Positions 1 through 18,263 of a stretch of 64,000 bases of DNA are shown here, piece by piece. Made by a program: the position numbers and the translations under genes. The notes under the pieces are model-generated. The model made no database searches. It was given only the letters and a program-made list of their open reading frames with translations, and was not told where the DNA came from. How positions within the stretch are numbered: the stretch's first letter is position 1; each line of letters opens with the position of its first letter. The DNA is from a virus (Duplodnaviria; Caudoviricetes): positions 17,222-81,221 of IMG/VR virus record IMGVR_UViG_3300033070_001161, one strand, 5' to 3'.

Positions 1-1
1 G

Positions 2-3000
2 GCAAGGGGTATAAATCTTCAAAAAGAAGGTGAAGCTTTTATTCGCCAAGGTGATGTTCTTGAAGCAAAAGATAACGAAGCAGATTATATGCATAACTAT
101 CTTGCTGTTCGTATTAAACACGGTAGATATGATTTAGTGCAGGATGATATAGAGAACTTCAGACAACAAGCAGCTTCTCCTGAAGGGCTTAATATGCTGA
201 AACAACAAGGATATGCTAATGAGAATGACACTCAACAAACATTCCTTGCTCGTGTTAATAACTTTGAAAAACATGCTAAAAACATAGATTCTCTGTATCA
301 ATCACTTAATATGGTGTATGGTGCAAAGATTAACCAAGACGGACAGCGTGTATATTCAGATGAGGTAATTGATAAAATGGTGTATGTTGGCTCAAAAATA
401 GCCGACTATGAACAACGTATTCCTGAATTATCTCAGCAACTGCTTAGTAATCAAATAGTTCTGGGCGATACATTAAGTAATATCTATAAAAATGGAGTTC
501 CTTCTGCCGATGCTGTAAAAGATGCTATTAAACAGATAGACGATCTTAGTGTAATTGATAGTAAGAAAGATGAACTGAAGCAATCCCTCCGTGATGTAAT
601 TGAATTAACAGGTAGAAGGAAAGAGTTTCTTGATGAATTCAAAAAACTTAAAACCTCTCCTGAGTCTTTTACTACAGTAACAGAACCCACTACTACCACC
701 GCTACCACTGACAAAAAGAAGATTAAACTCAAGACAAAAGATGGTGAAGAAGAGCTGGAAGTAGGCACTGAATATTTTGCAGGTTCCCAAGTTATAGAAT
801 CTAAAGAAGGTGTAGTATATGAAAAGTTCCCAAGATTTACAATAATAGGCGAGAATGAAGACGGTTCTGTTAAAATAAAAACATCAAATGGCGATATTTT
901 AGATGTAAAGAAAGATGCATTTTCTAAATATAAATTTGGTAAAGTTTCAGATACTGAAAAACATCCAAATGCAATGTTTTACGTTGAAGCTTCTGATACT
1001 ATATTTACATTTAATATGGGGAAAAAGGATAAAAACCCAAGAGGTAGATTGTCCTATGATCCTAAAACAGATAAATTATATTTTATAACATTAGATGGTA
1101 AAAAGACAATTGCTGTAACAAGGGATCAATTTTCACCTAAAAAAGGATATAGTATTGCTCAAATTTATTCTTCTGATAAACTAACACCTAAAGCAGAAGA
1201 GGCTTTAAAGCAAGAAGTTAATTTATCTGAAATACAAGAAAAGCGTGAGGCTAGACTTAAAATCATCTCTGAACTCAGAGAAGCTGCTTATGATAGACTT
1301 GATAAATTAACAGATAAGATTTCTCAAAAGAAAGAACAACTTGAAGGAGTTGAGAAAAACCTTAAAGAACTCGAAGAAAAGCTTCAAAAAGATGACAATT
1401 TCCGTAAAAATGGAAAAGGATTCAAAAAAGCTGGTAAAGAGGTAATCCGTCAGTTGAATATTCTGAGTGGAATGAGAACCCTTTTGAGTAGAGAAATAGA
1501 AGAACTTACTGCTGAACAGGAGGAAGTTGAATTTAACATATCCTATTTTGAGGATATGGGTCAGAATATTGATGAACTTCCTACAGATAGCAAAGACTTC
1601 ATAGAAGAACTTAATAATCAAGTGCTTGATCTTCAGATACTTTATGAAGAAACAGGCAAACAAATCAATTACTTATCAGGCGTATTAAGTAAGGTGGAAG
1701 ATGCGTTGAAAACAGCAGTTGATTTTGCTCTCAATCTTATTCAAAAATTTGAGAAAAAATATCCCGGATTACCCATAGCACCTGAAGCCCTTAGAAGTTT
1801 CTTAAATAAAGACTTGGAATTTAAAGGAACATGGCCTGATTATCAATCATATCTTACTGCCAATCCTAATCTTCTTTCTGATCTCAGGGAGTTTGATAGG
1901 GAACTTGCAGATATTGATGATCTGGATGTTATTCCTAATGAGCGTTCAGTAAAAGAACTTCAAGATAATATTGCTGATCTTAATAAACAACTTGCACAAT
2001 ATGAAAAGGAAATAAAAGCAAAGTCTGCAATTCTTGATAAATTTGAGGATATTGCAAAAGAATATAAACGCAAGGAAGAAGCTAAGCGTCAATATGAAAA
2101 AGATAAAGCTCTTCACGATGCTTTGTTCAAAGCACAATCTCAATTATCTGAGCAACCTTCAGATGATAGTACAGATGATGAGCTTGCTAAAATAGAAACA
2201 AAAGATAAAGAGGCTTCTAAAAAGAAAGACCTTTCTATCTATCCTATTTCTACAATAGCACCATCAAGGGAAACTGATCCTGAATTTGAGAATAAACCTC
2301 ATCTTTTAAGAGAGGAGAAATTTTTAAATAATTATGCTGCTGGTCTTCTTAAAGATGAAAATGGTAATGATATTACCCCTGATTTAAGAGTGCTTGTTAT
2401 ACATAGAAATAATCAAGCAAAATATGGACTTGACGGACTTGTAGAATTACGTAATCCCAAACAAGCCGATGAATCAGAAGAAGCATACGATAAAAGACTT
2501 ACAAATGCTGAAAGTGGAACAATTCTTTATTTATACATAAAGAAAGGGGAAGGAGAATGGGAAGTAATAGATGAAAATGGTAAGAAAATAGGAAGCTTTG
2601 ATAATGAGTTTAATCCTTCAGGAATTGATATAAATAAGGTGGTAACATCTACAGCTCCAGCAGCTAAAATATCACTTAAAGCAGGATCATTTACTAATAA
2701 AGATAACCTTAATTTAGCTGAAGTTGAAAAAGCTTGGCTTGAAAAAAGAAAACAATTATTAGAAGAGGGTGATTTACTCACTGTATCAGGAGTATCTCGT
2801 GGTGTAAAACAAGTAACAAGTACATCCGATAAGAATCCTATTACCCCTACTCTTACAGATTCAAAAACAGTTGATAAACAGCAAGTTATATTTGTATCTA
2901 CTTCGGATGTAATTAATACGCCTAATGATACTATTTATTATAAAGCAGGTAGACCTTATTTCCAAATAGGAGATAATGTTATTCTTTTAAATAATAGAAA

Positions 3001-6000
3001 TATTAATGAAAAAGAAGCAGATGCTATATTCTTAGTATTAAAAGAAGTAGCTACTAAATTCCAAGAATCAATCAAAGCAAATCGTCCTAATCTGGATAAG
3101 CAATTAGTTGATTGGTTAAATTCTATAATCTATTGGTATAGCCCATCTGAGAAAAATCCTACAGCACATAATCATCAGATTTATGTAAAATCTGGTAAAT
3201 TATTCATATCCGGCGTAGACACTGGTATATATTTTAATCCTGATAGCTTAGATGCTAATAGGAAACCTATTATCGAAACATTCCTTAAAGGAAATACCGC
3301 AGGACGGGGTACATATCACCATGTATCTCATAAAAACTTATCTTCAGATCAACCCTATATTGAGTACTACACTGAAGATGGTAAAACCTTAAAAACCAGA
3401 GAGCATAAATCATATCAGCATTATCTCATTGCTAATAACGTAGTGTCTACAAACGTAAGACCTCAAATGAGCGATACGGATAGCAACATTCGTGGTAGAT
3501 ATGCTATCACTGATATGGAACTCTCTCTTCCTAAAGAGGATGTTAAACCTCCCAAAGTTGAAAAAAAGGAAGAAGTAGTACAATCCTCTGGAAAACCTGA
3601 TAAACTTGCCGAAGCATTAGCTGTGCTTGCTGCAAATAAAGCTAAAAGACAAGCTAAAAAAGAAGGTGCTGCTGCTGAAGAAAAAGAAGAAAAATCAATA
3701 GTTCCATCTAAAGCCAATAGATTGAAATCTACAGATACAGTGTCTGTAAGTATAAAAGCTGCCGATCTTCTTGCAAAATTAAATGGTAAGGGATTTGTAG
3801 GAACTGATAGTAATGATGAAGAATATAGAAGAGTTGTAGAAAAAAGTATAGATAATGTAAAAAAAGAAGATATTGCTGCTGTAAAAGCGTGGTTTGCTAA
3901 AAATCTTCCAAATGTACCTCTCAATATTGTAGAACATATCCTCAAAACTACAGATGGTGGTTTTGCTTGGGGTAAGTTTTCAAGTGTGGGTGTTACAATG
4001 TATGAAAAAGCAAAAGAGGGTACAGGATACCATGAAGCATTTGAAGCAGTATGGAAAATGTTTATACCTGTTGAAGATAAGCAGAAGATAGTATCTGAAA
4101 TGAGACGCAGAAAAGGCTCATTCTATGATGCTATCACTGGTCAAAATACGGAATATAAATCAGCTACAGATACACAATTAAAGGAAAAACTGGCAGATGA
4201 ATTTGCAGAATATGTGCAAACAAACGGTGCTATTTCTGAAAAAATAAAAGGTCAACCTTGGATAATCAGAATATTCAGGGCTTTAAAAGAACTTTTTGAA
4301 AAACTTGTTTCTCCACAAAACAATATAGATCAATTATTTAGGAATATAAATAGTGGTCAGTATGCTACAAAACCAGTTAATCTGGAATCAGTGGTGGGGG
4401 ATGAATACAGTAGGGTGGCAGATTTATCGCATCAGCTTACAAAAGAACTTATGGAAGACATTACATCAAAGATTTTGAATAATTTCTTTGGTGCTAATGC
4501 TACATTATCTTTAGCTAATTTATCAGATAATAAGGAAATACCATTAGATGCCTATTACGATGCTATCAAACCTATGTTAGCTAATAAATTTGTATCAATT
4601 GGTAAACAAGCCCTCACTGAAGGTGATGAAGAACTTGCTCTTAATTTTTTAAGTATTGCTGATAATATCACCGATAATTGGGATGATGTTGTAAAATTAA
4701 ATAAAGAATATTTAAAAACATTTGGTCTTACAAGCAGTCATGAACAGGCATCTGATAATCTTCCTGAAAAGGTGAAAGAAGCAAAACAGGCTGAATTTGA
4801 AGATGATAATGATGGTATTCAAGATGATGATGAACCTGAATTTGAACAGGAGAATAAATCTCAATTAGAATATGATAGGGATATATTTACAATTTCTGGT
4901 AAGAAAAACGCTTCTGCCGGAATAAGGTTATTATTTGCTACACTTAGGGATGCTAAATTTATTCGTCAGTCTAAAGATGATGTGTCCGTAGTTCCAGCTA
5001 TAGAATTTGAAAGATCATCACTTAATGGATTCAAATTTGTGCAATATGCAAGAGTATTCAATCAAGTAGCAAACGCATTAGTTAATACTAATAAGATGGA
5101 AAATCTTATTAAAAAGCTTGTCAACCATGCTAAAACAAATGCTCCTATTGTAGACCTTTTAAGTCCTAATAAATTAAATATAAATAGAACAACAGGTAAA
5201 ATAAATTACAATTCATTATCATATAATGAATGGAGAATACTCTTGGATTTTGTAAAAACCATGAGTAAACAATCCCCTAATGCCCTCATATATGATATGA
5301 AAGGTAATACAGCCAAGCTTATTCCGGGTAATAAATATTCAGGAATTGAGCAAATTAAGAGGAATTTTGTAAAGAATGTAAAAAATAACAAAGAGTTATT
5401 CTCTTTTGATAAAAAGAAAAAGACATTTGTTGTCAATCCTGAATTCTTTAAAAAGAACCCAACACCAACCAATGACAAAGCATATATAGATTTTGCAAAT
5501 TCTATAGGTATTAAAACTGTAGACGGTGAATTATTATCGTTGGCTATGTTAAAAGCTATGCCTTTATTTCAAAAAGCAAAATTCAAAAGTGCTTTATCTA
5601 GGGTGTATACTCAATTAAAAAAACAAGACCCTTTATTTGATACATCAAATAAGGCATTACAGATTGAAACTCCTCTGAATGAAATAAGTATTGCTATCAT
5701 TTCCGCAACAAAAGATGACGGTTCTAACACCTTCTTAAACGTACTGAGAAAACCAGTACAGTCAGTGGTGTTGAATAACCCCCTGTCTACTTTCTTTAAT
5801 AATTTCAATTCTGTTTCCTCTCTCGATAATCTGCAAAAAGAGGAGCAAGGACTTACTGATGGGTTTTCTAAAAACTCAGTGATATTACAAAGAGGTGGTA
5901 GATTCTTTAACGAAGATGGTGATCGTACAGATGAGAAGATTGAAGTGGGATATATTGACGGTATAAAAACTCCAAGAAACTCTAAACAATCTTCTAAATT

Positions 6001-9000
6001 ATCCCTTATTCAAAGAAGACTCCTTTCTTTCAACCTTAATTTACAAGGTTGGTTTGTTCCTATCACAAATGGTGATAAGAAAACAGAATGGATACTATCT
6101 TTAGGTAATCATATATCTTTCAACCAAGTGGTTGCTGGAACTCACTGGGATTCAATATATTCTATATTTCATAACTATCTGAAAACAGAAATGGAAGTAG
6201 CACAAGTAGACGATGCTAACACATTAGCTGTTCTGGATAAACAAAAAAGGCGTGGAAATCTGAGGTTTTTCCTCAATATTCTTCCTGAAAATATTACAAA
6301 AAAAGCAAAAGTTGTAATAGATAATCTCGGAGATATTGATGAATTTATTGAAGAAAATGAGAAAAATATCAACAGTGCAATACGTAAATTCTTAGAAAAA
6401 GAAGCTAGTAGAACACGTACAGAGTTCCAGATATATAATATATTAGCAGTAGATGACAACGGAAATTATATATTTGATGGAATTGATGAAAAATTCGTAA
6501 TGGATAACATCAATGATCAGGGTGTAAATAAATTTAGTGAAGAGCAGGTTGATAATGTAATTCTCTATAGAACTGTTAATCAGGTGATTAACAATATAGA
6601 AATGCATAAACTTGTTATTGGCGACCCTGCATTTATGTCTGATCCTGCAAAACGTATTCCCGGAGCAATGGGTGGTGTAAATCAGACTACATATGGATCA
6701 CATGAATTTAATACGCATTTTTCAGCATTAGCAAATAGAACTGATGTTAATTCTAGCTCAATACAATTAGAACCTACTGATTTAGGATACACTCCTTTCT
6801 CAGATGATGTTTCTATTGTAATATATCAAGATGTTATCGTAGAAGGTAGGGTAGAAGGTAGTGACTATAAGAACACAAATGAAGTGGATGGTGGTTCAAA
6901 AATGAACCTTTCTGCATATAGAGAATTGAAAATAAGATCAGCAGAATGGACCGATGAACAGGAAAAACAATATCAATATCAAATGGCATTCTTCAGAGAT
7001 AGAATGTCAAAACAGGGAAAATATGACTATTCTTCAAAAGAATTAAAAGAACATGACGTTAACCTTTTAAAACAAGGTCAGCCTCAAGAAGGTATTTTTG
7101 AAATTATCAAACCTAAAGGATGGGGTCAGAATACAGCATCTCCATATAAAGATATAGTGTTCCTGAAAACATCAGCTCAACCTATTATCCCTACTGTAGC
7201 AAAAGATACAAACGATGAACTTCTTCTTCTGAAAATGATGAATGAAGGTATAAAAATTGCAGCTTTTGAATCAGCAGTAAAAGTAGGGGTACGTAGCACT
7301 GAAGCAGCATATGTAGATGGTAAGTTTAATGAAAATAAATACAACCCCGATGCAATACTCTATCCTTCTTGGAAAGATTTAGGTATTCAGGTAGAAACCC
7401 AATTCTCTCAAGGTAAGAATAAACTGACATTAGGTAGTCAGCTTACAACACTCGCTACACTTAACCTGTTATCTGGTGGTGTACCACAAGGATTTACAGC
7501 TACAGAATGGAGCAAACTTTCTGAAGAAGAAAGAATGGCAAAATCTGAAATATACAGAGAGGTAGTTACAAATAATCAGATTCTTGTAGAACTTACAAAT
7601 AATGGATATGTAGAACTTCTCGATAAATTAGGAATAGAAGAAGATGAAGATGGAAATTATGAAATAGTTGATTATCAACGAGTTGTAGATTTCCTTAAAG
7701 AACAGGCTCGTGACATGGATGATAATACAAAAGCTGCTCTTAAAGTGGACGATGTATTAAATTCATTAGCCGTACCTCTTGAGGCTATCCCTACATATAC
7801 TCAATTGAAAGCAATTCTTTATTCTATTGTAGATAAAAACATAGCATCTCCTAAAACATCAGGTATTGGTTTAGTGCAGATGCCGTCTACATTTACAGAA
7901 AATGAAGCGAGAACTACGCTTGTCGGTAATTCCACTTATAAATTCTATACAAAAGAAGAGCCTTGGATTGAGGTAAGTTTACCCGCATGGTTTAGAGATC
8001 ATCTTGAGAGATTTTATATTAATAATAAAAAACCCATTCCTTCAGAAGAAGAGCTGCTCAAATTATTGAATGATACTGATATATTAAATGGTATAGGTTT
8101 CCGTATCCCCACTCAGGAAATGAACTCTGTAGAGGTGTTTAAAATTAAGAGTTTTCTTCCTAAAGTGATGGGTAACACTATTATTGTACCTTCAGAAATC
8201 ACCACAAAAGCGGGTAGTGACTTTGACATTGATAAACTGAATGCGTATCTTAAAAATGTTATAATTACCAAAACGGGTAAAATATCCAAAGTAGCATCAT
8301 TTAATTCTCAGGAAGAAGCCGCTGATCATTTTGGAAGTGAATATGAAAATACTATTCAGAAGGAAATCAATAAAATTGAAAAATATGAAGATTTCCGTGA
8401 AACTCTTTTAGCTGTATTCAATGCAATAGAAAATATCAAGGGTGATATTACCTTAGATAAAATCAAAAAAGCACTCAATGAAAACCTTAAAGAATTCTAT
8501 GATGTGCATATGACTCTTCTTAATGAAATTATAGATCAAGCTGCTGAAGAACAATTAAATCCTTCAGAATATATTCAGAATCAGATAGATAGGCTTTCCC
8601 GTAAAAAAGGAAAACTTAATGCTAAGTTATTTAATGAACTGGCTAAAGAGATGTATATTAAAAAATATACAAGAAAATCTCTTGAAAACGCATACTACGA
8701 ATCCCTCGAAAGGCTTGTTCAGCTTCCTGAAAACTTTGAAAGGTTGATACAAATCAACACTACAAAAAATCTTGAAGAAATTAAGAATAACCTTAATAAG
8801 GCATTATTCACTGAGGATGAAATTAAACAAAATAACATCAATACAGGTGAAAAACTTGCATTGAACTATCTTCCTATTATCTCACCTTACACTCTGGATG
8901 AAATCAGGCATAATCTGGTTACAGGTAAGGATGGTGTTGGTATTGCTGCTGCTGCTCAAAAGAGCAACTCAATTATGCAACGTACTCAGGTAGTGATTGA

Positions 9001-11500
9001 TCCAAGTAGAGTGAATCTCCTTGACGATATTGATCCATTAAGAACACAATTAATAGGTGATGGTGTTATACGTTTTCCTCATAATAAAATTAATGGAAAA
9101 CCCACCATATCAATGTCTAAAACAGCAGATGGTAAAAAATATATTTCAGATATTATCTCTGAGTATATTAACGGATTTGTGGACGTTGTAAAGAATACAT
9201 TCATTATTGAAATGGGTGTTACCACTCGTACAGCAGGTACGTTCTTATTTATGGATAGACTTGGTAATAACACTGAACATACCACCTATTTTATGAACCA
9301 ACCTATTATCAGGCAATATTTAAAATTTCTTGATAAAAACAAGATAAATGGTATTAGACATAAAGAAAGTATAGGTGAAATTTACTCTACTTGGGGTGAT
9401 GTTAAGTATACAGGAAACGACACGCTTCCTACAGCTAATCAATTACTGGATAATATTAAAGAATATAAAGGAAAAAATAGGGATTTTAAGAATTTATCTC
9501 CTGAATTTGTAGAAGAGCAATCTAAAATATTTAATGAATTCCTGAAATATCAGGAGATGGCATCTGATTTATTTACCCTTATGCAGGGTATAAATTGGGA
9601 TACAGCCCACATGTCTGATCCTGAACAATTCCTTCTGAAGGATATTAATTACGATAAGGCAAACAACACCATATTCACTCCTGCTTCAGAGATATTGAAG
9701 AATGTATTTATTGGAAATACACGCCAAAAATTGATGGATTCTAGGAATGCAATAGGTGGTTTTATAGCCATAGAACATCCTAATGTACGTGAAGTGCTAG
9801 ATACATTAAAGCGTAAGTTCATTAGTATGAGCTTCTTCCCCAAGCCTGATGTATATAGTGCTATTGCTAAACGTATAAATAACTCCTTTTTAAACTATAT
9901 CTTACAGGTAAAAGGTGGATATAACAGAACTCAGATTGAGCAAGTTCTTTTGGATGAGCAAAATGGAGCAGCTTCACTACTTGAAGATTTACAAATTGCC
10001 ACTAAAAAAGATTCTGTTTTACATTCAATTCTGAAGCAATTCTCCATTGAAAGAAGAGGTAATGATGCTAATAGTGTAAAAGCTATTATATTCAAGAAAA
10101 GTGGTAATGATAAATACGACAGAGATACTGATATTGACAATTTCAGAATTTTAAAAGAAAACGCATACACTCAGGAATTATATAAAAAACTGGTCAGGGC
10201 AGCTCTTTTACAATCTGGTGTACAGTATTCTCCTATTTCATATTCACATTTAATACCTTCTGAAGACTATGCAAAAGCACTATCTAGTCTTGTGAATAAT
10301 CTGTCTACATACACCGATCTGGATAAATTCCTCACATCTAAATCATTTGCTAGAAACAACTGGAGTAATTCAGATGTAGCTAAACCGTTGACAATCAGTG
10401 AGAAAATGAAGGGTGTATCAGATATGGGTACAGTGTGGGCTATTCCGTTTATTCTTCCTAAACAACTTTCTAAGTTCCCTAAAGGATCAATAATGAAATC
10501 AAGAATGTTCTTAGGAGAATATGCTAAGTATCAACCACTTAACTCAATGGGTAGAGAAATGGCTTTTGTGCCCGATCTTACATATATGATAAATAAAAAG
10601 GATGCGTTTGAGAAAAACAATCCTATTTTAACAAAAACATATCTCTACGAAATTGTCAAAGACGAAATGGGTAAACCTCTTACAATTACAGAAAATTACA
10701 AAAATAAACAAGATGAAGAGGTACAAAGTGTAAGTTATCTGTATAAAGCAATCAATGCTTGGGGAGATGGTATGTATGCACAAGAGTATTATGATGCTGA
10801 ACGTTCTTCACAAATTGAAAATAATACATTCAAAGTGGATGAAACAGTAGTAAATGATACAGCTATTTATACAGCATTACGTGGAAAATCTGTATCTTTG
10901 CAAAGTAAAAAAGAAATTAAAACAGAGCTTATAGAATCTTCTAATAAAGTAATAGAAGGAGATATCTTTAGTATAAAAGGAATTCCTGTTATTACCACTA
11001 ATTTAGGAGGTGTTCATGGGGCAGGATTAGCGCAAAAAGCTAAAAGTAAAGGTCTTATCAAGCAAGGAGATGGTTTATTTAAAGCAAATAATAACGTTGT
11101 TCAACTTCCTGTAAAAAAAATATGGAGTGATAATATGGCAATGAACAACAATATGAAACTACTTGCAGAAAGTCTTAATAAATTAGTAAAAGTAGCAAAT
11201 GAAAATAAAAATAATACGTATTTATTACCACTCGCTGGACTAGGGCATGGTGAAGGAAAAGTCAGTGAAATAATGCCACTTTTAATTTCAACGTTACAAG
11301 CTTCTGAAAATATTAAATTAATATTACCTACAGAAGATATTTCTTTAGGTAGACAAGCTACTGTAAGAAAAGATGAAACTAGAAAAAAACTACCTGAAAT
11401 AAAAACAATGTTAGAAAAAGCAGGATTTATTAAAAGTAATAAGATAAATACTTCTGATAATAAATCAACTCAGGATAAAATAAACGACTGTTTAGGATAA
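2..11500 (+). CDS. Giant virion-packaged (ejected) RNA polymerase polyprotein, crAss-like; 5' end lies outside the window
   Basis: The frame is open from base 2 (ARGINLQKEG...) through the ATG at 89. It has the catalytic motif AGSDFDIDKL (DFDID at 8219-8233), typical of crAss-like virion RNAPs, preceded by GIGFRIPTQ. It also has a zincin-like HEAFE...EKLADEF region (4031 onward) and a C-terminal macrodomain. At least 3800 aa. Confidence 0.93.
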   Translation, partial: ARGINLQKEGEAFIRQGDVLEAKDNEADYMHNYLAVRIKHGRYDLVQDDIENFRQQAASPEGLNMLKQQGYANENDTQQTFLARVNNFEKHAKNIDSLYQSLNMVYGAKINQDGQRVYSDEVIDKMVYVGSKIADYEQRIPELSQQLLSNQIVLGDTLSNIYKNGVPSADAVKDAIKQIDDLSVIDSKKDELKQSLRDVIELTGRRKEFLDEFKKLKTSPESFTTVTEPTTTTATTDKKKIKLKTKDGEEELEVGTEYFAGSQVIESKEGVVYEKFPRFTIIGENEDGSVKIKTSNGDILDVKKDAFSKYKFGKVSDTEKHPNAMFYVEASDTIFTFNMGKKDKNPRGRLSYDPKTDKLYFITLDGKKTIAVTRDQFSPKKGYSIAQIYSSDKLTPKAEEALKQEVNLSEIQEKREARLKIISELREAAYDRLDKLTDKISQKKEQLEGVEKNLKELEEKLQKDDNFRKNGKGFKKAGKEVIRQLNILSGMRTLLSREIEELTAEQEEVEFNISYFEDMGQNIDELPTDSKDFIEELNNQVLDLQILYEETGKQINYLSGVLSKVEDALKTAVDFALNLIQKFEKKYPGLPIAPEALRSFLNKDLEFKGTWPDYQSYLTANPNLLSDLREFDRELADIDDLDVIPNERSVKELQDNIADLNKQLAQYEKEIKAKSAILDKFEDIAKEYKRKEEAKRQYEKDKALHDALFKAQSQLSEQPSDDSTDDELAKIETKDKEASKKKDLSIYPISTIAPSRETDPEFENKPHLLREEKFLNNYAAGLLKDENGNDITPDLRVLVIHRNNQAKYGLDGLVELRNPKQADESEEAYDKRLTNAESGTILYLYIKKGEGEWEVIDENGKKIGSFDNEFNPSGIDINKVVTSTAPAAKISLKAGSFTNKDNLNLAEVEKAWLEKRKQLLEEGDLLTVSGVSRGVKQVTSTSDKNPITPTLTDSKTVDKQQVIFVSTSDVINTPNDTIYYKAGRPYFQIGDNVILLNNRNINEKEADAIFLVLKEVATKFQESIKANRPNLDKQLVDWLNSIIYWYSPSEKNPTAHNHQIYVKSGKLFISGVDTGIYFNPDSLDANRKPIIETFLKGNTAGRGTYHHVSHKNLSSDQPYIEYYTEDGKTLKTREHKSYQHYLIANNVVSTNVRPQMSDTDSNIRGRYAITDMELSLPKEDVKPPKVEKKEEVVQSSGKPDKLAEALAVLAANKAKRQAKKEGAAAEEKEEKSIVPSKANRLKSTDTVSVSIKAADLLAKLNGKGFVGTDSNDEEYRRVVEKSIDNVKKEDIAAVKAWFAKNLPNVPLNIVEHILKTTDGGFAWGKFSSVGVTMYEKAKEGTGYHEAFEAVWKMFIPVEDKQKIVSEMRRRKGSFYDAITGQNTEYKSATDTQLKEKLADEFAEYVQTNGAISEKIKGQPWIIRIFRALKELFEKLVSPQNNIDQLFRNINSGQYATKPVNLESVVGDEYSRVADLSHQLTKELMEDITSKILNNFFGANATLSLANLSDNKEIPLDAYYDAIKPMLANKFVSIGKQALTEGDEELALNFLSIADNITDNWDDVVKLNKEYLKTFGLTSSHEQASDNLPEKVKEAKQAEFEDDNDGIQDDDEPEFEQENKSQLEYDRDIFTISGKKNASAGIRLLFATLRDAKFIRQSKDDVSVVPAIEFERSSLNGFKFVQYARVFNQVANALVNTNKMENLIKKLVNHAKTNAPIVDLLSPNKLNINRTTGKINYNSLSYNEWRILLDFVKTMSKQSPNALIYDMKGNTAKLIPGNKYSGIEQIKRNFVKNVKNNKELFSFDKKKKTFVVNPEFFKKNPTPTNDKAYIDFANSIGIKTVDGELLSLAMLKAMPLFQKAKFKSALSRVYTQLKKQDPLFDTSNKALQIETPLNEISIAIISATKDDGSNTFLNVLRKPVQSVVLNNPLSTFFNNFNSVSSLDNLQKEEQGLTDGFSKNSVILQRGGRFFNEDGDRTDEKIEVGYIDGIKTPRNSKQSSKLSLIQRRLLSFNLNLQGWFVPITNGDKKTEWILSLGNHISFNQVVAGTHWDSIYSIFHNYLKTEMEVAQVDDANTLAVLDKQKRRGNLRFFLNILPENITKKAKVVIDNLGDIDEFIEENEKNINSAIRKFLEKEASRTRTEFQIYNILAVDDNGNYIFDGIDEKFVMDNINDQGVNKFSEEQVDNVILYRTVNQVINNIEMHKLVIGDPAFMSDPAKRIPGAMGGVNQTTYGSHEFNTHFSALANRTDVNSSSIQLEPTDLGYTPFSDDVSIVIYQDVIVEGRVEGSDYKNTNEVDGGSKMNLSAYRELKIRSAEWTDEQEKQYQYQMAFFRDRMSKQGKYDYSSKELKEHDVNLLKQGQPQEGIFEIIKPKGWGQNTASPYKDIVFLKTSAQPIIPTVAKDTNDELLLLKMMNEGIKIAAFESAVKVGVRSTEAAYVDGKFNENKYNPDAILYPSWKDLGIQVETQFSQGKNKLTLGSQLTTLATLNLLSGGVPQGFTATEWSKLSEEERMAKSEIYREVVTNNQILVELTNNGYVELLDKLGIEEDEDGNYEIVDYQRVVDFLKEQARDMDDNTKAALKVDDVLNSLAVPLEAIPTYTQLKAILYSIVDKNIASPKTSGIGLVQMPSTFTENEARTTLVGNSTYKFYTKEEPWIEVSLPAWFRDHLERFYINNKKPIPSEEELLKLLNDTDILNGIGFRIPTQEMNSVEVFKIKSFLPKVMGNTIIVPSEITTKAGSDFDIDKLNAYLKNVIITKTGKISKVASFNSQEEAADHFGSEYENTIQKEINKIEKYEDFRETLLAVFNAIENIKGDITLDKIKKALNENLKEFYDVHMTLLNEIIDQAAEEQLNPSEYIQNQIDRLSRKKGKLNAKLFNELAKEMYIKKYTRKSLENAYYESLERLVQLPENFERLIQINTTKNLEEIKNNLNKALFTEDEIKQNNINTGEKLALNYLPIISPYTLDEIRHNLVTGKDGVGIAAAAQKSNSIMQRTQVVIDPSRVNLLDDIDPLRTQLIGDGVIRFPHNKINGKPTISMSKTADGKKYISDIISEYINGFVDVVKNTFIIEMGVTTRTAGTFLFMDRLGNNTEHTTYFMNQPIIRQYLKFLDKNKINGIRHKESIGEIYSTWGDVKYTGNDTLPTANQLLDNIKEYKGKNRDFKNLSPEFVEEQSKIFNEFLKYQEMASDLFTLMQGINWDTAHMSDPEQFLLKDINYDKANNTIFTPASEILKNVFIGNTRQKLMDSRNAIGGFIAIEHPNVREVLDTLKRKFISMSFFPKPDVYSAIAKRINNSFLNYILQVKGGYNRTQIEQVLLDEQNGAASLLEDLQIATKKDSVLHSILKQFSIERRGNDANSVKAIIFKKSGNDKYDRDTDIDNFRILKENAYTQELYKKLVRAALLQSGVQYSPISYSHLIPSEDYAKALSSLVNNLSTYTDLDKFLTSKSFARNNWSNSDVAKPLTISEKMKGVSDMGTVWAIPFILPKQLSKFPKGSIMKSRMFLGEYAKYQPLNSMGREMAFVPDLTYMINKKDAFEKNNPILTKTYLYEIVKDEMGKPLTITENYKNKQDEEVQSVSYLYKAINAWGDGMYAQEYYDAERSSQIENNTFKVDETVVNDTAIYTALRGKSVSLQSKKEIKTELIESSNKVIEGDIFSIKGIPVITTNLGGVHGAGLAQKAKSKGLIKQGDGLFKANNNVVQLPVKKIWSDNMAMNNNMKLLAESLNKLVKVANENKNNTYLLPLAGLGHGEGKVSEIMPLLISTLQASENIKLILPTEDISLGRQATVRKDETRKKLPEIKTMLEKAGFIKSNKINTSDNKSTQDKINDCLG
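10946..11329 (+). other. Macrodomain (DarG/Poa1p/TARG1-like) at the C-terminus of the virion RNAP
   Basis: The sequence KVIEGDIF...TTNLGGVHGAGLAQ...LPVKKIW...LLPLAGLGHGEG follows the macrodomain pattern GDIF / N..GvmG.GiA / PTK..W / P.lG.G.G. Confidence 0.8.
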
Positions 11501-11515
11501 AACAATAAAATAATT

Positions 11516-12205
11516 ATGGCCTGTCCCAATATAAACTCTCCTCAGTGGAAGGATTTAGTAAGTAAAATAGGTGTATTTGAAGCAATGAGAGAATTCATCA
11601 AAAATGGTGAAGAAATCCCAGATGCTGCAAATTATCAAGAAACATTTTCAGGTATTAATGCTACGTTAAAAGTAGTAGGAGCACTCCAGAAAATGACAAG
11701 AAACTCGTATCCTTCCAATCAGGTACAAGGATTTTATAATGACTTGATAAAATTAGGTACACCTAAGAATCAATTAGATTTATTAAAAGACCATATAGAA
11801 AGGAATAATATAAAACAAATCAATGTTAATGATTTGATTGTCAGTATTTTATCTGAAATGAACTACACAATTGAAATTAATACTGCTACAACAAGTTTAA
11901 AAAGAGATTATGATGAGGGATATGAATTTTCTGAAGAAGAGTTAATGAGAGGTCCACAATCAGAAGATTTATTAAAAAAACCAAGACCAACTACATATTA
12001 TGCTAATTTAACTGTACCGGGAGGTACTAATTATACAGAAAATGAAATAGCTACACCAGCTATTGTTCCTTCTATTAAAGGACATGCTCAATTTTCTACA
12101 GATAATGGTATTGGATGGTTTCGTTCAGATGACAAACATCCCTTTACAGGATTTTTAGAAGATTTAATTGCTTCGGGAACAATAAAAAAAGCACCTTGCG
12201 AATAA
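11516..12205 (+). CDS. N-terminal part of a large virion/ejection protein (probably a split gene)
   Basis: 229 aa ORF directly after the RNAP. It ends shortly after PSIKGHAQFSTDNGIGWFRSDD, a segment I recall being followed by TRRILExQSDLFQ in similar phage proteins; that motif is at the start of ORF 12693. Confidence 0.7.
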   Translation: MACPNINSPQWKDLVSKIGVFEAMREFIKNGEEIPDAANYQETFSGINATLKVVGALQKMTRNSYPSNQVQGFYNDLIKLGTPKNQLDLLKDHIERNNIKQINVNDLIVSILSEMNYTIEINTATTSLKRDYDEGYEFSEEELMRGPQSEDLLKKPRPTTYYANLTVPGGTNYTENEIATPAIVPSIKGHAQFSTDNGIGWFRSDDKHPFTGFLEDLIASGTIKKAPCE

Positions 12206-12690
12206 TGAAAACAGGAATATATAAAATAGAAAATAAAATAAATGGTAAATTTTATATAGGAAGTGCTGTACATTTCTATAATAGAAAATCTGACCATTTT
12301 AGAAGATTAAGATTAGGTATTCATAAAAATACTCATCTTCAAAATTCTTATAATAAATACGGCAAAGAAATTTTTACAATGTTTTTAATAGAAGAATGTA
12401 TTAAAGAAGATTTACCTATAAAAGAACAATATTATATTGATACTTTAAAGCCTGAATATAATATTTGTTTAAAAGTAGAAGGAAGATGGGGTTTAAATCA
12501 TACAGAAGAAGTTAAATCTAAAATTTCAGATTCTGTAAAAAAGTTTCATAGAGAAGTTGGACATTCTGAAGAGACTAAAAGTAAAATTGCTAATGCCTTA
12601 AAAGGTAGAAAACAATCTTCAGAAACTATTGAAAAACGTAGACAAGCTAATATTAAAGCTTGGGAACTTAAAAAATTAAACAATAATTAA
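12205..12690 (+). mobile_element. Free-standing GIY-YIG homing endonuclease gene with NUMOD3-type repeats
   Basis: GIYKIENKINGKFYIGSA, a conserved R and E, PEYN, and HTEEVKSKIS / HSEETKSKIA repeats. The ATG at 12205 overlaps the upstream stop (TAATG). Confidence 0.9.
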
Positions 12691-12692
12691 CT

Positions 12693-15600
12693 ATGGCTTG
12701 TTACGAATATAAAGGTGTAAAATATACCGAAGAAGATTTAGTAAAATTATTACAATCCCAGCAACTAAAAACAAGACGCATTTTGGAGCTCCAGTCAGAT
12801 TTATTTCAGAAAGGTAGGGATGAAAAAAAAGCACTTGCTTGGAATAGATATATTTTAGATAATAAAGGTGATGTTATAGGAGAAAATCCCAATTTTCAAT
12901 CAGAACAAGATTTTTTAAATTTACTTAGAAAAGACAATAACTGGGTAACATTCTTTGTTAAATCTATTATACAAGATAGTGCTAAAAAAGGATATGAAAA
13001 AGTGTTATTTCCTTCTGGAAATACAGCTAGTAAAGTAGAAGGTCATACTACTTTAGAAGAATTTAAGAAACAGAAAGAAAATAGGATTAAAAAACTTGAA
13101 AAACAAAGACTGGCTTTAGAAGATGAAGCAGAAAACAATACCGCTGTAGATTCTGATGGTGGTGAATATGATTATACAGAGGAATTTGAGAATATTGACA
13201 CCGAGATTTATCAACTTAAACAAGAACTTAAAAGAATAGAAGAGGAGGGCTTTGGTGCATTATTACCTATTTTCAAATTTTATGAAGAAACAGTAACCAA
13301 TGTACTCAAAAAACAAGGATACAATCCTACTCAAATCACTGATGAATATGGTAATACATGGAATGAAGTAGAAATAAATGAACTTGCAAATAACACTATA
13401 TTATTTCAAAAACAGGGAATAAAACAATCTAAAGCATCTGCAAAAACGATAGCTAAGGTAAAAGAATTCCTTAAAAGAATAGGCGTAGACATACAAGCCC
13501 TCGATACAGAACGATATGGAGGTATTAATGGTGTTGCCAATTTCTTAGAAGGATTCATACAACTTGCAGAGGGTAAAGAAGATGTTGCTATCACTGAAGA
13601 AGCAATGCACTTTCTTGTAGAAATATTAGAACTTACCAATCCTACATTATTCAAACAAATGATGAATAAGATAGGTAAGTATAACGTATTCTCAAAAGTA
13701 ATGAAATTATATTCACAAGACTCTGAATATCAAACAGATGGAAAACCTGATATTCTTAAGCTTAAAAAAGAAGCTATAGGTAAACTCCTTGCTGAATATT
13801 ATATACAGTCTGAAGATGGTCAATCTGAAGCTCCTGATTTGATGATTCAAACAAAATCATGGTGGGAGCAGATCATTGACGCTATTAAGAAATTCCTGAA
13901 AATTGCAGATTTTAATCCTTTCCAAGAAGCATTAGATAGTTTTAATGACTTAAATAACACAAATTCACCTACAAAAATATTAGCTAAAAGGATATTAGAT
14001 AGTTTGTCAGATGACAATATGTTTAAAAAAGCCATTAAAGATACATACGATAATGGTGATTATAAAGCTGTAGTAACAACCTTCTATCAACAACTTACAG
14101 ATAAGTCAGTATTTGGTATGAGTCCTTATGAATCCACTGTAAAAATGCTTGGTGGAAATGAAGAATTGGCTAAAGATATTATATCTTTAGGTAATCCTTT
14201 TTATCAATTATCTGAAGAAAAAAGAAAAAAACAGCAAGAAATTGCAAATTCTTTCGATCAAAAACTTAAAGATTTTGAGATAAGGAAAGTGACAGGTAAA
14301 GCTGAATTTGAAGAGCAAGATGATATAAACTACTATGAGCGTAAAAGAGATGGTAAGATAGGTAAGGTGGCAAAGCGTGTAACGGATTTTGTTAAAGAAA
14401 CAAAACGTCCCGATGTTCTTGCAAAATTTGAAAATGCTTCAGCCAAAGAAAAGAATACATATAAACAAAAAGCAGAATATGGTACAGCATTTCACAATGA
14501 TGCTGAATCAATTATAAAAGCATCCCTCACTTCTGATGGATATTTAAAACCTATTGATCAGATTAATGTAGATGCTATCACTCCAAATCTTCCTCAAGCT
14601 GGATTTTTGGCATTAAAGAACTATCTAGTTGGTGAAATAGACAATGAGGGTAATATCATTCCGGGTATATTATATACACAATTTCCAACAGGAACTCTCT
14701 TCAAAGTCGAGCAAATTATCTACGATGAAAAAAGAGACGTTGCTGGAACAATTGATCTTATGGGTATCACTCCCGAAGGTAAGATAATGATATATGATTG
14801 GAAAACCAAATTCCTTGATACAAAGAAATTTGACGATGTTCCTTTCTATTCTCAGGCGGATTATAGAATACAGCTTGCTCAGTATAAAGCAATGATGTAT
14901 AGATATGGATTAAAACCTAAAGAGGACGTTATTGTAGCTCAGGCAATTCCTATCGTATATAAAGGTAAGATAGACTCTTTAAATGGGGATGTCACCCTTA
15001 CAGATATAATATTTCCAGAAATAGATATAAAACAAGAAACTAGACGTTACCTTCTTCCTGTACCTATTGCTGAACAATCTTCAGGAAATACAAAAGTAGA
15101 CCAATATATTGATGCACTTAACCAATTATATCAGGTTTTGTACAAACAAAAAGATGTAAATAAAGAGCTTAAAAATGAGCAATTAAATGCAATTTCTGGT
15201 GCAATTCGTGAATTACAGGTGAAACAAGAATTTGGTCCTCTTGCAGAACAAGGACTTATTTTCTTAAAAAGTGCAGAACGTGTTATAGAAGATATAAACA
15301 CTCAACTGAAAAATGAAGATGGTACTTATAAGGAAATTGATCCTAAACAAGTAGATGAGTATTCAAAAAAACTGAAACTTATAAACGACAATATCCACAA
15401 ATATCAGTCTACTTATCAGTTATTCGATGAATTATATGGCGATAAAAATCTTACAGAATATCAGCAGGAAACCTATAATAAATTAGAAAGATTATCATTG
15501 GATAGTGGTAAGATTGCATCTAAAATTAATACGGAATATATAAATTTTGTTAAGCAATATTATACGTCAAAAGAAGGACTTGATATATTAAAGACAGAAA

Positions 15601-18263
15601 AACCAATTCAAGGTTTACTGGATAGGTCTATTCAAAGCTTATCTCGAATGCAAAATGTTGCTCTCCAATATCTTAGGAGTGTTACAGCTAGAGCAAACTT
15701 TCAAAAGCAAAGAGATGCAATAAAAAGACAGGAAGAACTTAGAAAATTACTAGATGCTTTCAAAAAAACAGCTCAGGCTAGAGGATTATCTCCTACAAAA
15801 TATTTTACACTCCTTGTCAGTAAGAACAAGAAAGGTGATCCTATGAACCAACTTATTAAAAAAATTAAGACTGAGTTCTATACAGAATTTGAAAAAGCAA
15901 CAAAAGACGAACCTGATATAAACTGGATAAAACAAAATATAGACCTTGATAAGTATATTGAGGATAAAGAAAAAGTTATTCAGAAAATGTTTGATCAGAT
16001 TGATGCTAGTATATATAGTTCTAATTCTAAAGAGGACGCTAAACGCAAAGAGGAAAAGAAAGAAGATATTATCAAAATGTATTCTTTCGACACTCCAAAT
16101 GCGTTAGGGTGGTATAGGCAAGACCTCAAATATTATATAAAGGATGAGAGTAAATGGGAAACAGATGAATATAAACAAATGTCTAAGGATAAATCTATTT
16201 TAGACTTATACGATTTTATCATAAAGCTCAATAAGGAAGCTAAAGATATGGGATATCATGATGACAAAACATCGTTGAGATTTCTCCCTTGGATGAGAGC
16301 CTCTATGCTCGACAGAATACGTACTTCTGGACTGTCAGCAATAGGCGATAGCATGGAATATCTATATAAACTTACTCCTGAAGAAGAAATCAGCTATTCT
16401 AAGGTTGATCCTAACACTGGAACAATTGAGAAATCTATTCCTGCATTTTTTACAAAAAACTTTGCTCCTGAAATAAGAGATGCTGATGGAAACATAGAAG
16501 GATATGATTTATCAGATGTATCTACAGATTTAGGAGAAACCCTACCTATGTATATAGAAGCTTTATATGAATTTAAATCTTTATCAGATATTGAACAATC
16601 TGTAAAAGCTGTACGTGACGTAGAAGCCGCTAAAAAAGCGTTCCTTTTAGATGAAAAGGGTAGAATTGTTAAGGAAAAAGGAACAAATATAAACAAATTA
16701 GCTAATGATAATGAGGCAAATGTAAAACTCTATGATAGTTTTGTAGAGGCTATTTTATATAAAAGAACATATGATAGTACAGCAAATCTGTCTACAGGGG
16801 CTACAAAAACCATCGAAAAAATGAACCAATACTTCAGATTGAAGGTGTTTGGTTTAAACATATTTACTCCAATCACCACATTTATTGGTGGTAATTTACA
16901 AGCTCTTATAAATTCAAGAAAGCTTTGGAGAGGACAGCAATTTTTAAAAAATGAAATGAAAATTGTCGGTAATCTGTTTAAAGGGGAAGAAGGTAATATA
17001 GAAAAAGGACTTATTGATTACTTTATACCTTTTACTGAAAATAGGGCAAAACTGAATGCGGAAAGAATGTCTTTTGAGAAAATTCAAAGATTTTCATTTT
17101 CTGATTTCATCATGGCTCCTATTAGAAAGACGGATATAATGGTACAAATGGCTACATCTCTTACAATGCTTGAAAATACAGTGTTGATTGATGGTGAATT
17201 AGTAAATGCTCGTGAATATATCCTTAACAGTAAAGAATATAGAGATCGCTATAAAGACTCATCTCAGTTAAAATCTTTAGAAAAAGACTTTGAAAAGAAA
17301 GTTAAAGAACTCGTTGATTCTAAAGGAGTTATGAAGTTTGCTAAGTTTAATAAGGACGGTCTTCTTGAAATAGAAGGAGTGTCAAGAGATTCTGATACTG
17401 TTAATAGATTGAGGCTCAGGATGTTAGATGAAATTAAAAATCTTACAGGTAACTTAACAGAAGAAGACAAACGAGATGCAGATAGAAACATTCTCCTCAA
17501 ATCAATGATGATGTTTAAAAACTGGATTCCTAGACTTGCTGCTGTAAGATTTGGAGATTTACAGAAAAATATTGATGCTAACCAATATGAAATGGGTAGG
17601 GTGAGAATGGTATATCAAGTGATCAAAAATGGAGACGGGGGGTGGATAAAAGGACTTACTAATGGTATACGTGATCTTAGAAATATGGTGGCAGGTAATG
17701 AGGAAGGTCTTAAAGTCCTTGCAAAATACTATGAACGTACTGCTGAAAGTTATAAAAATAAGACAGGAAATGATCTAGAAATGACTCCCGAAGAATTCTA
17801 TGATATGACTCGTAGGGCTATAGAACAAACAGCAAAAGATGCTGCTCTTTTAGCTACATTTATGACTATGTTTATTTATGCAAAATCAACACCACCCGAT
17901 GATGATGATAGTGATGAAAATAAGAATTTTTATAAAATTTCTGTAAGAATGCTGGATAAACTGACAGATGAGATTTCATTCTATTATAATCCTCTTTCAT
18001 TACAACAGATTTCTACAGGTTCTTGGATGCCGTCTATAGGTATATTAACAGACGGTATTAAGTTTTCAGGAAGTCTTATAAAAGAGGTGGGTGGACGTAC
18101 ATTTGGTGTAGAAAAATGGGAAGAAACTGCACATCCCACTAAGAATTTTTTAAATATGATCCCTATAGCTAATCAGTTTTTTAAGACATTTATACCAGTT
18201 ATTAACCCTGATATAGCTAAAGATTTGGATATACGAGTATCTACAGAATCTCGTAGAAACTAA
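12693..18263 (+). CDS. Large virion/ejection protein with zincin-like and PD-(D/E)xK nuclease domains
   Basis: 1856 aa. Contains RRILELQSDLFQKGRD, a zincin-like TEEAMHF, GTAFHN...VEQIIYD...VAGTIDLM...IYDWKT (PD-(D/E)xK), and a long helical C-terminus. It sits next to the RNAP, as in crAss-like giant-gene clusters. Confidence 0.8.
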   Translation: MACYEYKGVKYTEEDLVKLLQSQQLKTRRILELQSDLFQKGRDEKKALAWNRYILDNKGDVIGENPNFQSEQDFLNLLRKDNNWVTFFVKSIIQDSAKKGYEKVLFPSGNTASKVEGHTTLEEFKKQKENRIKKLEKQRLALEDEAENNTAVDSDGGEYDYTEEFENIDTEIYQLKQELKRIEEEGFGALLPIFKFYEETVTNVLKKQGYNPTQITDEYGNTWNEVEINELANNTILFQKQGIKQSKASAKTIAKVKEFLKRIGVDIQALDTERYGGINGVANFLEGFIQLAEGKEDVAITEEAMHFLVEILELTNPTLFKQMMNKIGKYNVFSKVMKLYSQDSEYQTDGKPDILKLKKEAIGKLLAEYYIQSEDGQSEAPDLMIQTKSWWEQIIDAIKKFLKIADFNPFQEALDSFNDLNNTNSPTKILAKRILDSLSDDNMFKKAIKDTYDNGDYKAVVTTFYQQLTDKSVFGMSPYESTVKMLGGNEELAKDIISLGNPFYQLSEEKRKKQQEIANSFDQKLKDFEIRKVTGKAEFEEQDDINYYERKRDGKIGKVAKRVTDFVKETKRPDVLAKFENASAKEKNTYKQKAEYGTAFHNDAESIIKASLTSDGYLKPIDQINVDAITPNLPQAGFLALKNYLVGEIDNEGNIIPGILYTQFPTGTLFKVEQIIYDEKRDVAGTIDLMGITPEGKIMIYDWKTKFLDTKKFDDVPFYSQADYRIQLAQYKAMMYRYGLKPKEDVIVAQAIPIVYKGKIDSLNGDVTLTDIIFPEIDIKQETRRYLLPVPIAEQSSGNTKVDQYIDALNQLYQVLYKQKDVNKELKNEQLNAISGAIRELQVKQEFGPLAEQGLIFLKSAERVIEDINTQLKNEDGTYKEIDPKQVDEYSKKLKLINDNIHKYQSTYQLFDELYGDKNLTEYQQETYNKLERLSLDSGKIASKINTEYINFVKQYYTSKEGLDILKTEKPIQGLLDRSIQSLSRMQNVALQYLRSVTARANFQKQRDAIKRQEELRKLLDAFKKTAQARGLSPTKYFTLLVSKNKKGDPMNQLIKKIKTEFYTEFEKATKDEPDINWIKQNIDLDKYIEDKEKVIQKMFDQIDASIYSSNSKEDAKRKEEKKEDIIKMYSFDTPNALGWYRQDLKYYIKDESKWETDEYKQMSKDKSILDLYDFIIKLNKEAKDMGYHDDKTSLRFLPWMRASMLDRIRTSGLSAIGDSMEYLYKLTPEEEISYSKVDPNTGTIEKSIPAFFTKNFAPEIRDADGNIEGYDLSDVSTDLGETLPMYIEALYEFKSLSDIEQSVKAVRDVEAAKKAFLLDEKGRIVKEKGTNINKLANDNEANVKLYDSFVEAILYKRTYDSTANLSTGATKTIEKMNQYFRLKVFGLNIFTPITTFIGGNLQALINSRKLWRGQQFLKNEMKIVGNLFKGEEGNIEKGLIDYFIPFTENRAKLNAERMSFEKIQRFSFSDFIMAPIRKTDIMVQMATSLTMLENTVLIDGELVNAREYILNSKEYRDRYKDSSQLKSLEKDFEKKVKELVDSKGVMKFAKFNKDGLLEIEGVSRDSDTVNRLRLRMLDEIKNLTGNLTEEDKRDADRNILLKSMMMFKNWIPRLAAVRFGDLQKNIDANQYEMGRVRMVYQVIKNGDGGWIKGLTNGIRDLRNMVAGNEEGLKVLAKYYERTAESYKNKTGNDLEMTPEEFYDMTRRAIEQTAKDAALLATFMTMFIYAKSTPPDDDDSDENKNFYKISVRMLDKLTDEISFYYNPLSLQQISTGSWMPSIGILTDGIKFSGSLIKEVGGRTFGVEKWEETAHPTKNFLNMIPIANQFFKTFIPVINPDIAKDLDIRVSTESRRN

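Follow-up and report, generated by a model that had tools for sequence, protein, structure and literature searches.

The giant RNA polymerase gene and its features

We analyzed a 64,000-nucleotide stretch of DNA (hereafter, the window) corresponding to positions 17,222 to 81,221 of the virus record IMGVR_UViG_3300033070_001161 (Duplodnaviria; Caudoviricetes), a linear record of 81,221 bp with a CheckV completeness of approximately 70%. The left end of the window is occupied by a giant open reading frame (ORF) that, judged by homology, is the virion RNA polymerase (RNAP) gene of a crAss-like phage, and the C-terminal region of the encoded protein (hereafter, the tail) was predicted with high confidence to adopt a macrodomain fold. 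Other genes identified in the window encode a DnaB-like helicase, a primase, a DNA polymerase, and a UvsX-like recombinase, and the likely hosts of the phage are marine Bacteroidota. The features of the giant gene are listed below, with amino acid (aa) residues numbered from the in-window ATG at position 89 (3803 aa, P0002); 560 is to be added for the full protein.

1-11500, + strand: giant virion RNA polymerase gene; the ORF runs upstream beyond the window, with an in-window ATG at 89
6530-9379, + strand: RNAP core, homologous to residues 850-1676 of phi14:2 gp66 (tblastn, BLASTP)
8219-8233, + strand: catalytic DFDID motif, aa 2711-2715, aligned to gp66 1361-DFDID-1365
10901-10939, + strand: linker (QSKKEIKTELIESS) ahead of the macrodomain, of low confidence (the first 10 model residues have a predicted local distance difference test value, pLDDT, of 56)
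10940-11416, + strand: predicted DarG2/AdfM/TARG1-like macrodomain, aa ~3618-3776 (AlphaFold2 (AF2) model, Foldseek, VIA-align, profiles, and hidden Markov model (HMM) envelope)
10958-10972, + strand: GDIFS motif (translation)
11000-11032, + strand: NLGGVHGAGLA motif (translation)
11000-11002, + strand: Asn3638, predicted active-site Asn, aligned to N22 of Thermus aquaticus DarG and N23 of AdfM
11015-11017, + strand: His3643 in GVHG, a family signature; Met (GVMG) in DarG and AdfM
11105-11125, + strand: LPVKKIW motif (translation)
11114-11116, + strand: Lys3676 of LPVK, predicted catalytic Lys, aligned to K80 of T. aquaticus DarG and K78 of AdfM
11228-11251, + strand: PLAGLGHG motif (translation)
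11228-11257, + strand: Gly-rich phosphate-binding loop PLAGLGHGEG, aligned to DarG PPLGVGNGGL
11366-11383, + strand: RKDETR (R-x-D-x-T) motif of a C-terminal extension, outside the DarG alignments
11417-11500, + strand: short C-terminal tail ending in NDCLG, plus the stop codon; Cys at 11489-11491

Positions 10400-11500 (+ strand) were translated without a stop in the frame of the giant ORF, which ends with its stop codon at 11500. The ORF is cut by the window edge: its frame is open to position 15627 of the record (window position -1594), and its first ATG lies at window position -1591, approximately 1.6 kb upstream of the window, giving a protein of approximately 4363 aa and not 3803 aa. This ATG overlaps the stop codon of the preceding 845-aa ORF (TAATG).

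The RNAP core was recognized from its similarity to crAss-like polymerases. A tblastn search with window positions 6500-10000 against 50,697 phage records matched 145 records, nearly all of them crAss-like, including phi14:2 g066, annotated as 'Catalytic RNA polymerase subunit' (4e-18), the putative RNAP of crAss001 (7e-21), and cr108_1 (2e-28). Comparison of the giant ORF with phi14:2 gp66 by BLASTP gave an E-value of 7e-24 over gp66 residues 850-1676; in this alignment TTKAGSDFDIDKLN sits opposite PTKTGSDFDIDKMY, and the DFDID of GSDFDIDK falls on gp66 residues 1361-1365. These matches, extending from gp66 to crAss001 and other Crassvirales RNAPs, bear out the preliminary description of the window, which had named a crAss-like RNAP as the carrier of the macrodomain. 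Searches with the whole giant protein against Pfam, PHROGs, and PDB sequences (phmmer) gave no useful match.

The gp66 protein of phi14:2 is packaged in the virion, translocated into the host, and transcribes the early genes; it is active in vitro on single-stranded or denatured DNA, and mutation of any one Asp of its DFDID motif abolishes activity (bioRxiv 10.1101/2020.03.07.982082). By homology with gp66, the giant RNAP would likewise be carried in the virion and translocated to the host cell. The two proteins share a homologous polymerase core with aligned DFDID motifs, whereas gp66 has 2180 aa and lacks a macrodomain, and the phage protein has approximately 4363 aa and carries one.

Predicted macrodomain fold of the tail

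The AF2 model of the tail built with a 42-sequence alignment had a pLDDT of 87.1 and a predicted template modeling score (pTM) of 0.81; the single-sequence model was uninformative (pLDDT 45). In the Foldseek search of this region that the preliminary description had proposed, run here against PDB, the leading matches of the tail model were all macrodomains, headed by Mycobacterium tuberculosis DarG (1.3e-5), followed by nsP3 of Venezuelan equine encephalitis virus, T. aquaticus DarG, TARG1, and T. africanus DarTG, and 57 matches were obtained at E <= 1e-3. Structural alignment using VIA-align gave macrodomain matches with Z-scores of 12-14.6 over approximately 130-145 residues, namely M. tuberculosis DarG (Z 14.6, root-mean-square deviation 2.5 A, 129 aa), T. 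aquaticus DarG (14.5), T. africanus DarTG (13.9), alphavirus macrodomains (13.7), and TARG1 (13.6). DarG ranked first by profile E-value, identity, and Z-score, with the alphavirus macrodomains and TARG1 at most 1 Z unit away.

The 42-sequence profile also placed DarTG/DarG at the top among PDB sequences (1.1e-4, 3.1e-4, and 7e-3); its lower-ranked matches were macrodomains too, at non-significant values. Both Gly-rich loops of the ADP-ribose-binding kind were aligned with those of DarG, the loop following strand 2 as N..GVHGAGLA with N..GVMGKG(I/V)A and the P-x-x-G-x-G loop as PLAGLGHGEG with PPLG(V/A)GNGGL. A phmmer search of the tail against PDB sequences yielded nothing useful, and weak matches to PHROGs were found (phrog_335 'phosphatase', 1.3e-6; phrog_2072, 3.5e-4). 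A LOG/SLOG fold was considered for the P-x-x-G-x-G-x-GEG motif and dropped, as the structure and profile matches were all macrodomains.

The Pfam Macro model (PF01661) did not match the tail or the whole protein even at E <= 10, and weakly matched 2 of 16 free-standing family members (best 0.0017). This reflects a limit in the sensitivity of the model and not in the fold, so that routine annotation overlooks the domain.

Conservation of the domain and the predicted active site

The four motifs named in the preliminary description (GDIF, N.GGVHGAGLA, LPVKKIW, and PLAGLGHG) were all present in the frame of the giant ORF by translation, within its last approximately 190 residues. The location given there was correct; its extent of 10946-11329 was too narrow, as the HMM envelope and the model extend over approximately 10940-11416. 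A HMMER scan of 1.84 billion representative proteins retrieved 91 homologues of the tail, including 79 at E <= 1e-10 and 35 at E <= 1e-30. Together with the near-invariance of the motif residues, these homologues indicate that the motifs are not a chance pattern.

Among 103 near-full domains, P3714 was retained in all, and N3638, H3643, and K3676 each in 102, followed by E3722 (94) and D3762 (92). In the PLAGLGHGEG loop, which contains the Pro and Glu just mentioned (103 and 94), three Gly were kept in at least 100 of the 103 domains, and the Gly of both ADP-ribose-binding-type loops were kept in at least 98. Such retention of Asn, His, and Lys fits an enzyme under selection.

The Asn and Lys were matched to known active-site residues by two alignments. 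In the profile alignment to T. aquaticus DarG (a chain with a 10-residue tag), the family Asn falls on N22, and in that to T. aquaticus and M. tuberculosis DarG, the V-K Lys of LPVK falls on FPTK, which by counting is T79-K80. Alignment of the 42 sequences with PhiKZ gp104 (AdfM; L016:12518-13003) using hhalign gave a probability of 96.8% and an E-value of 2e-10, placing N3638 on AdfM N23 and K3676 on AdfM K78; BLASTP of the tail against gp104 showed that 49% of the first 35 aligned residues are identical. A tblastn search with the tail did not recover AdfM. The Lys of DarG (K80) and TARG1 (K84) are catalytic, and the K80A and K84A substitutions abolish rescue from DarT (PMC8501950); AdfM removes the ADP-ribose placed on DNA by DarT2 and protects PhiKZ, the first phage macrodomain for which this was demonstrated (PMC13309987). 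The suggestion that the Lys of P-x-K-x-x-W corresponds to the catalytic Lys of DarG is therefore supported by the alignment of K3676 with both DarG K80 and AdfM K78.

Two features are unlike DarG and AdfM: the GV(M/H)G loop has His where those proteins have Met, and nothing in DarG corresponds to the conserved R-x-D-x-T extension. The DarG structural alignments stop at model residue 144, short of this extension, and the residue blocks around R-x-D-x-T have mean pLDDT values of 66 and 94.

A Cys lies within the last 2-7 residues of the giant RNAP and of all seven of its IMG/VR relatives (L001-L007); the terminal sequences seen among these proteins are NDCLG (the phage), KECY, CFRV, KCKR, SCLGKIK, IKCI, and GPCK.

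Distribution and domain architecture in relatives

A survey of crAss-like RNAPs, also proposed in the preliminary description, identified approximately 30 other giant proteins from marine metagenomes (31 with the giant RNAP), seven of them on viral contigs, that combine a crAss-like RNAP core with the macrodomain among the collected proteins. Domains in this set were called by jackhmmer searches seeded from Pfam-confirmed segments in a small protein set, which may over- or under-call. In the seven IMG/VR contigs, the domain lies 830-1100 aa downstream of the DxDxD motif in ORFs of 2400-4100 aa, and is followed by a tail of 41-721 aa. Many of the homologues are proteins of 2000-5700 aa in which the position of the domain varies, and others are free-standing, with 150-190 aa. 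The sequences carrying the domain come from JGI, ENA, Logan, and TARA, and are mainly marine.

The C-terminal 531 aa of phi14:2 gp66 contained no macrodomain (hhalign probability 0.4%), and tblastn of the tail against the 50,697 GenBank phage records gave no match. We therefore regard the fusion as a probable accessory trait of a crAss-like lineage that is uncultured and mainly marine.

In several relatives, other enzymes were found beside the macrodomain. An AlkB-like 2-oxoglutarate-Fe(II) oxygenase was identified in P0016 (34.6 bits, above the Pfam cut-off) and in L003 (28.6 bits, with a visible H-x-D motif), RNase H in L005 (2e-11), and an AAA_30/PIF1-type superfamily 1 (SF1) helicase in P0012 (3e-16). 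Two proteins with a crAss-like RNAP core (P0015 and P0031) carry a cpYpsA SLOG domain by the macrodomain. Outside the RNAP proteins, macrodomain-cpYpsA fusions were Pfam-confirmed in L008 and P0046 (in the family as a whole, jackhmmer added approximately eight more), and DUF4326 follows the macrodomain directly in L013:5033-17095 (Pfam 2e-5) and P0054, both of which are giant and lack the DxDxD motif. The relatives of each kind are as follows.

L003:10490-12652, L005:10571-12160; P0011, P0012, P0016, P0021, P0023, P0026: AlkB-like, RNase H, or helicase directly before or after the macrodomain
L008:188-3781, P0046, P0070, P0074, P0076, P0082, P0015, P0031: macrodomain-cpYpsA fusions, in both orders

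The C-terminal part of the RNAP in these relatives looks like a variable enzyme tail, which in the phage appears to be reduced to the macrodomain alone. With an RNAP and a macrodomain in the phage, and with AlkB-like, RNase H, SF1 helicase, cpYpsA, and DUF4326 domains added in varied order in its relatives, these proteins have the composition of polyvalent proteins.

In a quick maximum-likelihood tree of this macrodomain family alone, all 30 RNAP-fused domains and a few free-standing ones fell on one side of a branch (Shimodaira-Hasegawa-like approximate likelihood ratio test, 95%), and the forms linked to cpYpsA, those in other giant proteins, and most of the free-standing ones on the other; only the RNAP-fused split of this tree is reliable.

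Four further small viral contigs of IMG/VR, of 6.5-7.2 kb (L009, L010, L012, and L015) carry the macrodomain at or near the N-terminus, with two of the ORFs cut by the contig end. The proteins of L009, L010, and L015 (759-1001 aa) have a common conserved C-terminal end, and the remainder of the L010 protein beyond the macrodomain contained nothing recognizable by Pfam.

Putative function of the macrodomain

We favor, with some reserve, the reading that the tail is an injected ADP-ribosylhydrolase of the catalytic-lysine class that acts on nucleic-acid adducts and counters a host ADP-ribosyltransferase (ART). According to this proposal, the last approximately 160 folded residues of the giant RNAP would form an enzymatically competent macrodomain of the DarG2/TARG1/AdfM class. 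As part of a polypeptide that would be packaged in the capsid and enter the cell together with the DNA, it would already be present at the incoming genome ahead of all phage gene expression. There it would strip the ADP-ribose that a host ART puts on nucleic acid, the best candidate target being thymidine-linked ADP-ribose on single-stranded DNA from DarT2-type toxins, and its removal would keep the template readable for the tethered polymerase and for later replication. The catalytic activity, substrate, delivery, and counter-defense role proposed here are suggested by homology and by published precedent, namely the translocation of gp66 and the action of AdfM against DarTG2 (PMC13309987).

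Nucleic-acid adducts, and DarT2-type thymidine-linked ADP-ribose in particular, are favored because the characterized homologues act on that substrate, because DarT systems are reported to lower both transcription and replication of phages (PMC13309987), because the carrier polymerase uses single-stranded templates, and because the neighboring domains in relatives are mostly nucleic-acid enzymes. A DarT homologue (PF14487) was not detected in the 81-kb record at E <= 1, nor were ART, NADAR, Tpt1, cpYpsA/SLOG, or AlkB homologues, which in a record about 70% complete leaves their absence unproven; a self-regulating pair of ART and macrodomain thus appears unlikely. The DarT2 target TNTC was not avoided in the record (1684 and 1606 sites per strand, 0.97-1.05 of the Markov expectation), a result that is uninformative either way.

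Several points weigh against this proposal. TARG1-class enzymes also hydrolyze O-acyl-ADP-ribose. Structure alone cannot single out DarG, since the Z-scores of DarG, the alphavirus macrodomains, and TARG1 lie within 1 unit, and the family is divergent, as Pfam Macro misses the tail. The His in place of Met and the R-x-D-x-T extension mean that specificity may differ from that of DarG and AdfM. In relatives, the macrodomain is one of several domains in a variable enzyme tail and is not always terminal, and macrodomain-SLOG fusions occur in the wider family and in the two RNAP-bearing relatives P0015 and P0031, a pairing that Iyer et al. take as processing of soluble ADP-ribose-derived signals (PMC9503650). 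In addition, transcription of PhiKZ is not blocked by DarT2 (PMC13309987).

The last points but one bear on the main rival, which we consider less likely, namely that the domain hydrolyzes small ADP-ribose derivatives, such as Thoeris-type cyclic ADP-ribose isomers, ADP-ribose-1''-phosphate from RES toxins, or O-acyl-ADP-ribose, and so blunts NAD-derived immune signals or toxic metabolites at phage entry. The recurrence of macrodomain-cpYpsA fusions speaks for it, as does the conclusion of Iyer et al. (2022) that phage domains of the Macro, NADAR, SLOG, and Nudix types mainly hit soluble ADP-ribose derivatives and are often packaged in virions (PMC9503650). However, the closest characterized relatives, DarG2, AdfM, and TARG1, act on DNA-linked ADP-ribose through the same Asn and Lys (PMC8501950, PMC13309987), the identified neighbors of the macrodomain in the RNAP-fused half of the family are mostly nucleic-acid enzymes, and no cpYpsA SLOG domain was found in the giant protein of the phage.

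We give a lower probability still to RNA adducts, to protein adducts, and to a role confined to binding. Fusion to an RNA polymerase would be consistent with removal of ADP-ribose from RNA, acting co-transcriptionally through the tether on early transcripts hit by a CmdT-like mRNA ART or on phosphate-linked ADP-ribose at RNA ends; CmdTAC is presented as an anti-phage defense by mRNA ADP-ribosylation in PMC11618068, and enzymes that reverse RNA ADP-ribosylation are described in PMC11833690. We nevertheless regard this as improbable, because no feature of the sequence favors RNA over DNA and the nearest characterized homologues are DNA-directed. Proteins appear a similarly improbable substrate, whether the domain shields the injected polymerase from host ARTs, a self-protection raised in the preliminary description and one that the cis position with the RNAP would favor as self-repair, or reverses the modification of host proteins. 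TARG1 does remove Glu/Asp-linked ADP-ribose from proteins (PMC8501950), but DarG2 macrodomains are reported to counter DNA ADP-ribosylation only (PMC13309987), the search of the 81-kb record for an ART partner encoded by the phage was negative, and the neighboring domains in relatives act on nucleic acids. Least probable of all is a non-catalytic domain, which would sense ADP-ribose or a nucleotide or, at the end of the ejected chain, serve as a plug for folding or packaging. Ligand binding is the sole activity of some macrodomains, macroH2A among them (PMC9503650), and the domain stands at the protein end beside the conserved terminal Cys, but the catalytic Asn and Lys are retained in 102 of 103 domains, whether RNAP-fused, free-standing, or of other architecture, and without catalysis such retention would be difficult to account for.

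A more specific form of the nucleic-acid proposal, which we put forward tentatively and consider unlikely as it stands, is that the macrodomain cleans the template in cis, erasing DarT-type ADP-ribose from thymidines in the strand exposed by the two-barrel RNAP; the AlkB-like, RNase H, and helicase beads of the relatives would act likewise on alkyl lesions and RNA-DNA hybrids. If so, the crAss-like virion RNAPs of this group would act as 'repair-coupled transcription machines', self-contained and introduced by ejection, a counter-defense mode not described for any phage.

Comparison with known systems

Both the phage domain and AdfM are phage-encoded orphan DarG2-like macrodomains with matching N-terminal motifs (I.GDIF...G..IT.N..GV.GAGLA), and the Asn and Lys of the former align with N23 and K78 of the latter. 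AdfM, a protein of the chimallivirus PhiKZ, is free-standing, has 162 aa, is expressed late, and is imported into the phage nucleus, whereas the phage domain is covalently part of an approximately 4363-aa crAss-like virion RNAP, would arrive pre-made with the DNA, carries His in place of Met within its GV(M/H)G loop, and bears the additional R-x-D-x-T extension. DarG2 (T. aquaticus 5M31/5M3E, M. tuberculosis 5M3I) and human TARG1 provided the best structural and profile matches, with the Lys (K80/K84) and N22 kept, although identity is only approximately 21-23% and Pfam Macro is blind to the phage domain. Unlike DarG2, the phage protein has no DarT-binding C-terminal domain, only approximately 27-45 residues remaining before the stop, and no adjacent DarT gene, the flanks being RNAP-block and endonuclease genes.

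Virion-delivered polyvalent proteins, including N4-type virion RNAPs fused to ART, MPTase, lysozyme, and PBECR domains, have been described (Iyer et al. 2017, PMC5512222), and virion-packaged macrodomains have been predicted (Iyer et al. 2022, PMC9503650). The phage protein resembles the former in being a giant virion-delivered protein with early-acting effector domains strung on a polymerase, and the latter, together with packaged NADAR and Nudix domains, in that its macrodomain is predicted to be packaged and deployed early. In contrast, these surveys treat N4-like (T7-type) virion RNAPs and do not mention the crAss-like two-barrel RNAPs (PMC5512222, PMC9503650). The phage macrodomain AdfM is known as an anti-DarT2 factor by experiment (PMC13309987, 2026).

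A further likeness is to positive-strand RNA viruses, as macrodomains also occur in the polymerase-bearing polyproteins of alphaviruses and coronaviruses (PMC9503650), and the alphavirus macrodomains matched the tail model with a Z-score of 13.7. The phage relatives have AlkB-like domains by the macrodomain. AlkB domains are carried by the replicases of plant RNA viruses. The phage differs from these viruses in having a DNA genome, a two-barrel RNAP that is DNA-dependent, and delivery by virion ejection instead of genome translation.

Our literature search found no publication that connects crAss-like phages, or the RNAP they carry, with a macrodomain, and a putative AdfM/DarG2-like eraser built into a probably injected two-barrel RNAP appears to be new here. 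A domain homologous to an AdfM-type eraser, invisible to Pfam, thus sits in a protein that crAss-like phages probably deliver along with their DNA; if active, it would show a phage meeting an ADP-ribosylating defense before expressing any gene. The macrodomain gives a functional label to part of the approximately 1600 residues of crAss-like RNAPs without an assigned role. It also defines a family, clearly marked by its catalytic signature, of approximately 100 representative sequences, which is open to the existing DarT/DarG assays.

Neighboring genes

The ORFs downstream of the giant gene (11516-12202 and 12693-18260) had no homology to the post-macrodomain tails of the relatives beyond a 40-residue N-terminal match: the N-terminal approximately 40 residues encoded by the ORF that follows the RNAP gene (window 11516-11640) match the N-termini of P0012 and P0013 (E ~1e-6). 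This match points to an N-terminal 'head' that can be reused among proteins of the gene block. The 1856-aa ORF at 12693-18260 has a weak PD-(D/E)XK nuclease match at residues 588-751 (Pfam 2.8e-4, just under the cut-off). Additionally, two homing endonuclease genes were identified in the virion/RNAP block, one of GIY-YIG type at window 12196-12690 (phrog_314, 1.5e-32) and one of HNH type at window 18330-18998 (phrog_374, 1e-56).

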